A DNA stretch of 64,000 nucleotides from Nitrospirota bacterium (GCA_963740085.1 CAVUCU010000001.1:1056001-1120000), one strand, 5' to 3'. Counted from the stretch's first letter, positions 1 to 3,202 are shown. The notes: generated by a model from the letters alone, not told the origin. Made by a program: numbers and translations.

Positions 1-1623
1 TTAGCATTGTGTCTCTTGCTGGTTCCCATCGTCATAAACGGCTGCAGCTCCAGCAGTTATGACACCCCGGTAACCGCTCAGACATCTGCGACATTAATCT
101 CTCCGGAAACGCTCAAGACATGGACAGACAGCGGGATCGTGAACAGCACGGGTTTCGACCGGGTCGTGATCCTCGACGTCACCTCCTTGGCGACCTACAC
201 CGCAGGCCACATCCCGGGCGCGCAGTTCGTGAACAGCAATGACATCTATCAGGTCCGCCAGGAAGGCCCCGCCACCGATGTCAACATGGTCATTGACGGC
301 GCGCACATGGACGCCCTGGTCCAGAAATACGGGATCGACAAGGATACCACCGTCGTGTTCACCAGCGGAGCAGCGTCTCCCGGTGCAGGTTCCGTGCTCA
401 GCGCCACGCGGGGCTATTGGACATTCCGGTACTGGGGATTCCCGAAGGAAAAGCTCAAGCTGCTTGACGGTATCAATTTTGCCTGGAATGCAGCCTACGG
501 CCTGGCCACGGAGATCCCTCCCGCACCGACGCCTTCCACCTACAGCGTGAAGAACAATGCGCAGTTGCGCACGGACCTCAGGGCATCCCTGAGCGATATG
601 ATCAACGTGGCTGAGGGCAAGGTGGCGAATGCCGTACCGGTTGACATGAGAAGCGGACCGACGGACGGATCGTATGTGGGCAAGCGCGGCTCGACCACCG
701 GCGTCTTCAATCCGGGAAGCGATTATGTTGCTTTCGAAGGCCGCTTGAAGGGCGGCAAGGCCCTGCTGTATACGGACATGCTCGATCCTGCAAACAATTA
801 TCGTTTCAAGTCGGCCGACGTCCTTGCCGCCATGTTCATGGCCATCGGGGTCGACAGCACGAAATATGCCCATGTTTACTGAAGGACCGGAGTGATCGCC
901 AGTTCGGCGTTCTTTGTTCTTGATGCAATCCTTGGTTGGCCGGTCGCAGACTATGACGGTTCATGGAGCCAGTGGGGGCAGATGGCTGCTGCAAATAATG
1001 ACAACGGCGGAATGTTGACCGCAGATTCTCCGTGGAGGACGGACGTCCCCTCCCGCAGCGAGCTCTTCGTTTACAACTACGATACAACGGCAGGCCCGGT
1101 GTTCTATACGTCGGTTTCCACGACGGTAACCGGCCTGAACGACATGACCGCGGGAGGAGCCTTCAGCGGAACAGCGAGCAGGTATTTCAGGGTTCAGATC
1201 GACGGCTCAGGCACGCCTGATACGTTCAAGTGGTGGCTCTCGAGCAGTGCTACCAATACAGTGTGGAACGCTCAAAACGTTCCCGTCTCGGCCGGAACAT
1301 TCACTCTCGGTGAGGGCATGACCGTCTCCTTTGCCACAACGACGGGCCATACCGTTAGCGACCGGTGGGATTTCATCACCAAGAGGGCGGTGGAGAGGCT
1401 TGCGCTTGACGGCAGTATCTGTTCAAGCAGTACGAGCGTGGCCGGCGTGACGACCTATAGTCCCGCAGGATGCACTCCCCTGCTGCCCAATTCGTATGCT
1501 CCGTCGGGGAATGAGATCGAAGAGGAAGATGCCACCTATTTCGGGGTCGGCGGCAGCGGCGGCAGTAGCGGAGGCGGCGGTGGCCCCATAGCGCCGGGAT
1601 ACGCACCGGGATTGTTAAAATGA
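1..1623 (+). CDS. extH: Tandem-rhodanese sulfurtransferase lipoprotein, ExtH-like, predicted selenoprotein (Sec at UGA 880-882); 5' end outside window
   Basis: ORFs 7..882 and 892..1623 share a frame; read-through gives HVY-U-RTGVIASSAFF...YDGSWSQW (rhodanese active-site loop and C-terminal signature); GHIPGA motif; lipobox INGC; upstream of an ExtI-like porin. Confidence 0.85.
883..912 (+). promoter_or_regulatory. Putative bacterial SECIS element
   Basis: Hairpin GA(U)CGCC-AGUUC-GGCG(U)UC at 894-912; apical loop starts 18 nt after the UGA and has G at loop position 2. Confidence 0.7.
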
Positions 1624-1886
1624 AGTCGACTGTCACCAGCGTCATTGTGACAGCATGCATGCTCGCAGCGGGTGTACCGGTGGGAACCGTTCTTGCGGGA
1701 TCAAATGGCGAAGCGGTGCATCCGCAGCACAATACGACGACCGAGAGCCCTTTTGAAGGAGACCATGAAGGCAAAGGAGCCGAAGAAGGACTGTCTTCGA
1801 AGGAAACCGACACTCGGAAAAACATCATGTCTCCGCAGAAGAAACCTCGTCTGAAATATCGTGACGAGTCAAAGTGCTCGTGTTAG
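1620..1886 (+). CDS. Small exported protein with C-terminal CxC
   Basis: ATGA overlap with the upstream stop; signal peptide ending VLA; ends ...KCSC. Confidence 0.7.
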   Translation: MKSTVTSVIVTACMLAAGVPVGTVLAGSNGEAVHPQHNTTTESPFEGDHEGKGAEEGLSSKETDTRKNIMSPQKKPRLKYRDESKCSC

Positions 1887-1942: not shown

Positions 1943-3202
1943 ATGAGAAAATCAGGAATTACATTATCCGCGTTGCCAGCGGGGGCATGTCTCGCGGTAC
2001 TGCTATTGATCGGCGTACCCGCTCTCGCCCAGCAAACAGAACCCGCGGTTCAGACAACTCCTGCGAACCAGCCGGATACTGCAAAAGATGCAGGAACGCA
2101 GCAAATAGTGGACGCGCTGTCTTCGATCAGGTTGAACTATGCGTTTCAACTTTACGGACAGTGGAGGGACACGGGCTCCGGGCCGAAGGGAACGGACAAT
2201 ACAAGCGACATCTACTTTAAGAGAGACCGGCTCATGATGTCGGGACAGTTGGATGATGTCTACAGCTTTTATTCCGCTGTTCAATTCCAGGGGGACGAGA
2301 GGATCTTTCCCACCGATGTAACCACGACACCGTCGAAAAACTTTGACATCATTGACACGTACCTGAGCGCCGACTACACGGATGCGTTCCGGCTTCGTGC
2401 AGGACTGACCAAGGACCCGATGATACGGGAGCAGAACGAGAGCTGCTTCGAGCCTCTCAGCGTTGACCGGTCCTATTTTGATTACACGAACCTGCCGCGC
2501 TTGAATCGCGATTTCGGCCTCGTTGTGTGGGGAAATGTCGCCGACGCGCTATTCCAATACAGGGTAGCGGCAATGAAGGGCAATGACGACAGCAACGACC
2601 CAAAGAGCTCTCTGCGGTACACGGCACGGGTCCATGTCTCGCTCCTGGACCCCGAGTATTCGATCAGCTACAAGGGAACCTATCTCGGCCAGAAAAAGGT
2701 CCTGACCATCGGCGCAGGCTACCAGCTGGAGCCGGATGCTGTGTATGGAAATGTCGCCGGAAAGGATGGCGCAAAGGATTATAAGGCGTACACATATGAC
2801 ATTTTTTTCGAATATCCGACACCTGCCGGAACGTTCACAGCTTCCGGTGCATATCTTAAATTGGATTTTCAGGGTGCATATCAAGGTGCAGATCCTGACC
2901 CGCGGAGTATCGGCCTGAATGGAGAGAAAAAAGGCTGGTACACTAAAGTCGGGTATCTTCTGCCTGTCAAGATCGGAACGGGCGCACTCCAGGTCTACGG
3001 CCGCTATGAACAATGGAGATTTGCAGATCTTGCTGCAATTGTAGATCAGGAAATAAAATGGTCAGCTGTCGGTGTCAACTATTTTCTCAAAGGGCAGGAC
3101 CTGAGGCTCACCCTTGAATATTCAATGAACGATTACGAAAAGGAAGACGCTAACATTAAGGACTTTAAGACCGTCTCCGCAATGCTCCAGCTTCGTATTT
3201 GA
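1943..3202 (+). CDS. extI: Outer-membrane porin, OprO/OprP-like (ExtI-like)
   Basis: AAGGAGG RBS at 1931-1937; signal peptide; amphipathic beta strands; context with ExtH-like rhodanese. Confidence 0.75.
   Translation: MRKSGITLSALPAGACLAVLLLIGVPALAQQTEPAVQTTPANQPDTAKDAGTQQIVDALSSIRLNYAFQLYGQWRDTGSGPKGTDNTSDIYFKRDRLMMSGQLDDVYSFYSAVQFQGDERIFPTDVTTTPSKNFDIIDTYLSADYTDAFRLRAGLTKDPMIREQNESCFEPLSVDRSYFDYTNLPRLNRDFGLVVWGNVADALFQYRVAAMKGNDDSNDPKSSLRYTARVHVSLLDPEYSISYKGTYLGQKKVLTIGAGYQLEPDAVYGNVAGKDGAKDYKAYTYDIFFEYPTPAGTFTASGAYLKLDFQGAYQGADPDPRSIGLNGEKKGWYTKVGYLLPVKIGTGALQVYGRYEQWRFADLAAIVDQEIKWSAVGVNYFLKGQDLRLTLEYSMNDYEKEDANIKDFKTVSAMLQLRI

Follow-up and report, generated by a model that had tools for sequence, protein, structure and literature searches.

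A probable selenocysteine form of the tandem-rhodanese lipoprotein ExtH, divided by an in-frame TGA in a Nitrospirota genome

We studied a 64,000-nucleotide (nt) stretch of DNA from a Nitrospirota bacterium (GCA_963740085.1, CAVUCU010000001.1:1056001-1120000; the whole of it is referred to here as the window), which opens with two open reading frames (ORFs) that lie in the same frame and are parted by a single TGA. These two called "genes" are a single gene, completed by 51 nt upstream of the window, for an exported, selenocysteine (Sec)-type ExtH, a tandem-rhodanese lipoprotein in which Sec would take the place of the catalytic cysteine. We are confident that the gene encodes a true selenoprotein, with the UGA at 880-882 serving for the insertion of Sec. 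With a little more reserve, we also regard as very likely the overall explanation developed below, that of a single gene for a Sec-decoded ExtH; the transfer of sulfur or selenium together with the outer-membrane porin ExtI is a more tentative part of it. Passages of two earlier studies describe ExtH as the rhodanese-like lipoprotein of the extHIJKL cluster (PMC5877670, PMC6148476).

One gene across an in-frame TGA

On the plus strand, frame 1 was open from base 1 to the TGA at 880-882 (ORF 1-882) and resumed at 883, with GTG 892 as its first start codon and a TGA at 1621-1623 as its end. This is the arrangement that a preliminary description of the DNA had noted, two same-frame ORFs parted by one TGA; the ORFs span 1-882 and 892-1623. 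When TGA 880-882 is read through, the translation becomes ...STKYAHVY-U-RTGVIASSAFFVLDAILGWPVADYDGSWSQWGQ... (context also rendered as ...KYAHVY-U-RTGVIASSAFFVLD...), and the YDGSW motif follows in the same frame at 952-966, in agreement with the Y-U-RTG loop and the YDGSW signature that had been claimed. The start codon of extH was found in the organism's own genome, an ATG at L021:9950, 51 nt upstream of the first base of the window and preceded by AAAGGAGG, so that the first 17 codons (L021:9950-10000) lie outside the window. Read through in full, the gene gives a product 557 residues long, in which Sec would be residue 311 (Sec311) and which begins with a putative lipoprotein-type signal peptide, read from the sequence as MDFPNKHRKRFSWQLVVLALCLLLVPIVING-C and ending in ...LLLVPIVING-C. 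The lipobox Cys32 was invariant in both homologue alignments (16/16 and 30/30 rows). Homologues could be aligned across the whole length of the read-through protein, and conservation of coding in frame extended for ca. 240 codons past TGA 880-882.

The read-through protein matched the NCBIfam model NF040901 with 309.6 bits (cut-off, 200) over profile positions 12 to 393 of 430, and a search of the genome with the same model gave this gene 306 to 307 bits. The model is named [quoted passage not shown] without the "(seleno)" that the name of ExtKL carries. In rhodaneses, the cysteine of the active-site loop is the catalytic, persulfide-forming residue. The region around the UGA matched the catalytic domain of thiosulfate sulfurtransferases of solved structure, and in phmmer comparisons with 1uar, 3aax, 3hwi, 3p3a, and 3hzu, "vYCRtG" paired with "vYCRiGERSS," which places Sec on the loop cysteine. 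The motif of the window, U-R-T-G, also satisfies the UxxG pattern of rhodanese-domain selenoproteins.

Homologous loci were drawn from the genomes of relatives, from GTDB species genomes, and from a sample of the phylum. Among 70 distinct homologous active sites, the codon at this position was TGC in 44, TGT in 12, and TGA in 14, with no other codon. We added 25 metagenome contigs, 23 of whose loci cover the site, and these carried 19 TGA, 3 TGC, and 1 TGT. Together, 33 Sec-type sequences from distinct loci and several lineages (14 + 19) have TGA in the catalytic column. Within the phylum sample, ExtH scored above the cut-off in 24 of 401 genomes; a single in-frame TGA was present in 11 of the 24, in all 11 at the catalytic column. 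Every full-length database homologue had cysteine there (13/13 in one comparison and 29/29, besides the query, in the other). The preliminary description had singled out the alignment of Cys with UGA as a point to check, and the UGA does fall on the catalytic cysteine of both ExtH and the solved rhodaneses.

The TGA forms came from genomes labeled Nitrospirota or from unlabeled metagenome contigs, with one exception labeled Betaproteobacteria, while no TGA was present in any Geobacter, Desulfuromonas, Acidobacteriota, or Eisenbacteria row examined. On a quick maximum likelihood tree, the only source of this count, the Sec label had to change six times, and well-supported branches force four or more of these changes. 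One related genome (G013) carried three ExtH-like paralogues (L028, L128, and C12:238693-239625), of which two have TGA, and the third Cys, in the catalytic column.

Public databases hold most of these proteins in a shortened form. For 73 of the 120 best protein-database matches, the length was 309 to 335 residues and the sequence broke off at the residue that precedes Sec, in ..H[V/A/T]Y or ..YVY; the remaining 47 were longer, Cys-type proteins. The 73 entries stop exactly before the Sec codon and are therefore truncated, one of them (P0025) under the NCBI name ExtH. The expectation that standard gene calling splits the gene in two was thus confirmed by the 73 matches that end at the preceding tyrosine.

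The genome also encodes the machinery for Sec, which had likewise been named as a point to check. Adjacent selA (607.8 bits) and selB (376.5 bits) genes lie on contig 3, and a tRNA-Sec gene (selC; 66.7 bits, anticodon TCA) follows ca. 5 kb further on. With selD (351.1 bits; C1:750805-751725, L010), all four genes scored above their cut-offs. Since selD itself contains one in-frame TGA, its product is probably a selenoprotein too. Elsewhere, TGA behaves as an ordinary stop: it terminates 874 of 1,899 stop-to-stop frames of at least 300 codons, more than any other stop in this genome, and it is the natural stop of extH, extI, and neighboring genes. On these counts, we rejected a genome-wide recoding of TGA. 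A sequencing error at 880-882 was rejected as well. Logan contigs from three runs (X1 to X3), which belong to one study, have a depth of 3 to 6, and may derive from the source sample, showed no letter other than those of TGA at these positions, where TGC or TGT in other reads had been named as a sign to look for; the 33 independent TGA-bearing sequences weigh more than these contigs.

A SECIS-like hairpin and the decoding of the UGA

A 19-nt hairpin begins 11 nt past the UGA. Its stem pairs 894-900 with 906-912 and includes one U.U mismatch, its loop (A901-G-U-U-C905) corresponds to nucleotides 19 to 23 past the UGA, and a 4-bp core starts at 897. The preliminary description had placed a hairpin with a G-containing loop 18 nt downstream; the hairpin is real and that distance is about right for the core at 897, but the whole structure starts 11 nt after the UGA. 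Both the 11-nt spacing and the GU bases of the loop are features that we take, from work on the Escherichia coli fdhF element, to be determinants of SelB recognition.

The evidence for this element came from codon usage. In eight Sec-type genes of the lineage of the window, 136 degenerate columns encode an invariant residue, and just 12 of them use a single codon; 8 of these 12 comprise AGG at 883 together with an unbroken run of seven codons, 892-912. Along similar lines, 24 related Sec-type rows, 21 of which are distinct, showed no variation at positions 893-913, with 2 to 4 variants at third positions on either side. The peptide C-R-T-G-V-I-A-S is also encoded by 11 Cys-type genes, and in these it was written with four different codons for Val, three for Ala, and five for Ser. 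Another lineage of the Sec type (L064, L112, L127, and L159 to L163) had a different stem, GGG(C)AGC / GCU(A)CCU, with its geometry unchanged but displaced by 2 nt and with AGUUA, AGUUG, or CGUGA as the loop; here, substitutions were confined to unpaired positions, in the loop or in the internal mismatch. L126 and L128, two further single lineages, had other hairpins with a G early in the loop. Overall, all 14 Sec-type sequences compared had a loop that started at +19 to +26 and carried a G at one of its two leading positions. Judged by its sequence, the hairpin at 894-912 is a SECIS (Sec insertion sequence)-like element under synonymous-site constraint, and the claim of a bacterial SECIS geometry holds as far as distance and constraint go.

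Several observations weigh against decoding as Sec and have to be set beside this evidence. The 66 nt past the UGA folded no more stably than shuffled sequences (z = -0.23), and the energies of the best hairpins were alike in Sec-type (mean, -7.8; n = 14) and Cys-type (mean, -7.7; n = 54) genes. Given that Cys-type genes fold equally well, thermodynamic stability was rejected as evidence for the hairpin. An Rfam scan of positions 700-1100, with E values of up to 10, gave two chance-level matches and no SECIS family. The stems were invariant, with no compensatory double change within any lineage; the argument for structure therefore relies on synonymous constraint and on variation limited to the loop. 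Lastly, the support gathered here is at the sequence level; no RNA run appeared among the sequencing runs listed for this DNA.

If the TGA were a true stop, a split or decaying gene would give a 310-residue lipoprotein devoid of the active site and perhaps a 243-residue product from GTG 892. Public gene calls match this division exactly, since they include the 73 best matches of 309 to 335 residues ending in ..HVY or similar; TGA is the commonest stop of the genome; and the stability of the hairpin is unremarkable. However, the downstream piece would begin partway through the catalytic domain and lack a signal peptide, 33 Sec-type sequences of several lineages share the position of the TGA, with the ca. 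240 codons downstream conserved in frame, the synonymous constraint coincides exactly with the hairpin, and the Sec machinery is complete, all of which makes a true stop very improbable. Just as improbable is a read-through of the UGA as Trp, Cys, or Gly by a near-cognate or suppressor tRNA: the lack of a SECIS match in Rfam would fit it, but the catalytic column holds only Cys or UGA, the usual Sec/Cys pattern, the genome has SelA, SelB, SelD, and tRNA-Sec, TGA is an ordinary stop elsewhere, and the conserved GU-loop hairpin lies at what we take to be the typical spacing of bacterial SECIS elements. Decoding of the UGA as Sec by SelB and tRNA-Sec, most likely directed by the hairpin 11 nt downstream, would account for the gene better than either.

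Protein domains and gene neighborhood

The coordinates of the features are collected in Table 1. The extra all-beta domain, ca. 120 residues long, sits after the catalytic rhodanese domain and is present in homologues of ca. 530 to 560 amino acids (aa) and missing from those of ca. 430 aa. An AlphaFold2 model of ExtH had a mean pLDDT (predicted local distance difference test) of 74.9 and a pTM (predicted template modeling score) of 0.68, with both rhodanese domains confident and a pLDDT of 72 to 93 over residues 400 to 480 of the insert. Neither the insert, the tail, nor the 88-aa ORF had a Pfam or NCBIfam match, and a Protein Atlas look-up of the insert (window 1066-1503) was uninformative, with low recognition and matches only to unnamed viral clusters (0.90 to 0.91).

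Table 1. Features of the extH locus (window coordinates)
Feature	Position	Strand	Evidence
extH coding sequence, Sec-containing tandem-rhodanese lipoprotein	1..1623	+	NF040901 match and full-length homologue alignment
Lipobox Cys (Cys32), after K/R-rich n-region and hydrophobic h-region	43..45	+	Sequence, invariance in homologues
N-terminal noncatalytic rhodanese domain	160..492	+	Pfam PF00581, residues 54-164 of P0001, E 2.8e-10
C-terminal catalytic rhodanese domain core, holding active-site loop and YDGSW	739..990	+	phmmer vs solved rhodaneses
UGA predicted to be read as Sec311, catalytic-Cys position	880..882	+	Cys/UGA column comparison
SECIS-like hairpin, GAUCGCC-AGUUC-GGCGUUC	894..912	+	Folding and synonymous constraint
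All-beta insert domain, residues ca. 385-505	1102..1464	+	Alignment gap pattern; AlphaFold2 strands only, 385-504
Gly-rich disordered C-terminal tail, ending ...PIAPGYAPGLLK	1546..1620	+	pLDDT <50 over 535-558
Small ORF, 88 aa, signal-peptide-like start, overlaps extH stop (ATGA), C terminus ...KCSC	1620..1886	+	ORF listing; tblastn
extI, outer-membrane porin; frame open from 1895, ATG 1943 after AAGGAGG	1943..3202	+	NF040900, PF07396

The tails differ between the two types. In Cys-type proteins, the Gly/Ser-rich, disordered tail usually has Cys last, with ...GC-stop in 37 of the 50 rows with a complete 3' end, while Sec-type tails end in ...PGY in 9 of 14 rows and in Cys in 2 of 14; that of the window continues for six residues beyond PIAPGY. 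Because the rows are related, this association with Sec/Cys status may reflect clades only. A flexible arm that ends in cysteine is reminiscent of SoxY, whose arm carries sulfur.

Downstream, at 320 nt from extH and with the small ORF in between, lies extI, whose product matched NF040900 with 447.3 bits (cut-off, 150) and also PF07396 (Porin_O_P). The order extH then extI was found in 29 of 46 distinct genome-contig loci, the misses being short contigs or distant non-ExtH rhodaneses, and what is conserved is this pair of genes. By tblastn, the 88-aa ORF recurred at 30 to 40% identity between the two genes in L023 to L025, L043 to L045, L047, L087, L112, L124, and L125. Its place differs from that of Geobacter extJ, which follows extI. 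At one of these loci (L112:7770-9759), two ExtI-like stretches follow a Sec-type extH, the first of them in pieces, which suggests a broken duplicate. Genes for an ABC (ATP-binding cassette) transporter and rsmE lie downstream of extI, and a radical-SAM (S-adenosylmethionine) gene and an amine-oxidase-like gene lie upstream of extH. An assignment to the ext operon of Geobacter, as made in the preliminary description, was correct in the identity of ExtH and ExtI (309.6 and 447.3 bits) but not in the rest, since the cytochrome genes are not adjacent and the host, judged by its relatives, is Nitrospirota-like.

One gene of the ext set does occur elsewhere in the genome. A Sec-type MccSep/ExtKL pentaheme cytochrome is encoded at C1:787688-789004 (L121:6688-8004), ca. 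268 kb from extH, alone at its locus with no other ext genes beside it. It matched NF040886 with 591 bits and PDB 9wt8/9wt9 with an E value of 7e-175, and its UGA falls on U325 of the solved enzyme. On the minus strand of contig C7 (ca. 46.9 kb on the reverse complement), we also observed a CXXCH frame split by a TGA into 219 codons-U-436 codons, with 8 heme motifs and the context ...HGPNN-U-GPSF..., which may be another Sec multiheme cytochrome.

Proposed role and relation to known systems

The closest described counterparts are ExtH (GSU2940) and ExtI (GSU2939) of Geobacter sulfurreducens, with which the window shares a tandem-rhodanese lipoprotein gene followed by an ExtI porin gene, and conservation of the loop and of the YDGSW region. 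Geobacter-type ExtH is a Cys-type protein of ca. 430 aa, and no TGA was found in the Thermodesulfobacteriota rows examined. In contrast, the protein of the window would have Sec, the extra all-beta domain of ca. 120 residues, and a tail with PIAPGY... instead of ...GC, and extKLMNOPQS are not adjacent to its gene.

Sec in two-domain rhodaneses has been cataloged since 2005 to 2007, and what the window adds is the Sec form of ExtH. Passages of the Sargasso Sea selenoproteome list a "rhodanese-related sulfurtransferase (COG2897)" (PMC1088965), and those on Olavius symbionts list a "Sulfurtransferase COG2897" selenoprotein (PMC1976440). The relevant passages of a 2026 review distinguish rhodanese-like forms 1 to 5, two of them with UxxG, and list ExtKL (PMC13188914). 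In the proteins so cataloged, Sec likewise replaces the cysteine of a rhodanese domain, and forms 2 and 4 of the review, with UxxG, resemble the U-R-T-G of the window; the cataloged entries are defined by Pfam or COG domain only, and our comparison of them with ExtH was one of descriptions. The passages of the review on Sec-rhodaneses do not mention ExtH, NF040901, a lipoprotein, or a link to ExtI (PMC13188914), and a full-text literature search, which covered main texts and not supplements, returned no paper calling ExtH a selenoprotein.

MccSep/ExtKL (PDB 9wt8) belongs to the same ext gene set, is also a selenoprotein, and is also split at its UGA by gene callers. It differs from ExtH in its unrelated fold, that of a multiheme cytochrome, and in being a reductase rather than a transferase. 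Passages of the study of MccSep present it as a periplasmic, Sec-dependent polysulfide reductase with homologues common in Thermodesulfovibrionia, and its authors state that how polysulfide crosses the outer membrane is unknown (PMC13510729). As to ExtH and ExtI, ExtH is treated, in the part of PMC6148476 that concerns it, as an outer-surface component of the extHIJKL unit, and loss of ExtI is reported to impair how selenite and tellurite are reduced in G. sulfurreducens (PMC5877670).

Sec would put selenium at the site of the persulfide-forming cysteine of other family members. By analogy with rhodaneses, the selenolate would attack a donor of sulfane sulfur, such as thiosulfate or polysulfide, or else a donor of selenium. 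The transferred atom would be carried as Sec-Se-S(-), a selenenyl sulfide, and then handed to an acceptor. At the outer membrane, ExtH(Sec) and ExtI could thus capture sulfur (or selenium) species and pass them on for periplasmic reduction, a proposal made because extI nearly always follows extH and because the genome encodes MccSep/ExtKL. The transfer of sulfane sulfur (or selenium) by ExtH at the outer membrane and the location, substrates, and partners of the protein are in this sense predictions, and a role in sulfur relay, drawn by analogy, is put forward tentatively, at somewhat less than even chances. The periplasmic Sud protein of Wolinella succinogenes offers a working model that resembles this proposal, with a rhodanese fold whose catalytic cysteine carries polysulfide sulfur to polysulfide reductase. 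The likeness is one of description only, and Sud differs from the ExtH of the window in being a soluble protein of the Cys type with one domain, whose partner is the molybdoenzyme Psr.

More speculatively, and rather doubtfully, selenium could act at two successive steps of extracytoplasmic sulfur (or selenium) respiration in these Nitrospirota, in Sec-type ExtH on ExtI and then in MccSep: through selenenyl-sulfide chemistry, ExtH docked on the ExtI channel would take up the sulfane sulfur of S0 or polysulfide, which the Sec-dependent heme enzyme MccSep would then reduce. Two features of the locus count against the role proposed for ExtH above. The ext cytochrome genes extKLMNOPQS are not beside extH, which weakens the functional link to MccSep, and the protein is without the C-terminal cysteine found in most family members, so that a relay through that residue does not apply to it.

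A different role for the same selenoprotein, which we consider rather unlikely, is the handling of selenium or tellurium oxyanions that the family name of ExtH implies. The protein would then take no part in a respiratory sulfur relay and would instead bind the selenium, derived from selenite, that comes in via ExtI, or reduce it. Such a role would agree with the poor selenite and tellurite reduction of the ExtI mutant of G. sulfurreducens and with the ability of rhodanese to carry selenium, reported in work cited in the same passages (PMC5877670). MccSep also reduces selenite, but less well than polysulfide, which it favors with a fivefold lower K0.5, and the relatives that carry ExtH and MccSep are sulfur-reducing or sulfur-disproportionating groups, in the account given by the relevant passages of PMC13510729. 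The sequence itself cannot tell a sulfur substrate from a selenium one.

For the family, a Sec-type ExtH corrects a systematic annotation error, through which databases represent this clade mostly by half-proteins ending just before the Sec codon, and adds ExtH to ExtKL/MccSep among the selenoproteins of the ext sulfur/selenium system. If the two-step reading is true, ExtH and ExtI would be the missing outer-membrane entry for polysulfide that the study of MccSep left open, and the repeated switches between Sec and Cys in ExtH would track the availability of selenium. The natural Sec/Cys pairs of this extracytoplasmic rhodanese could serve to test the contribution of selenium to the chemistry of sulfur transfer and the possibility that polysulfide or selenite crosses the outer membrane by way of ExtH/ExtI.

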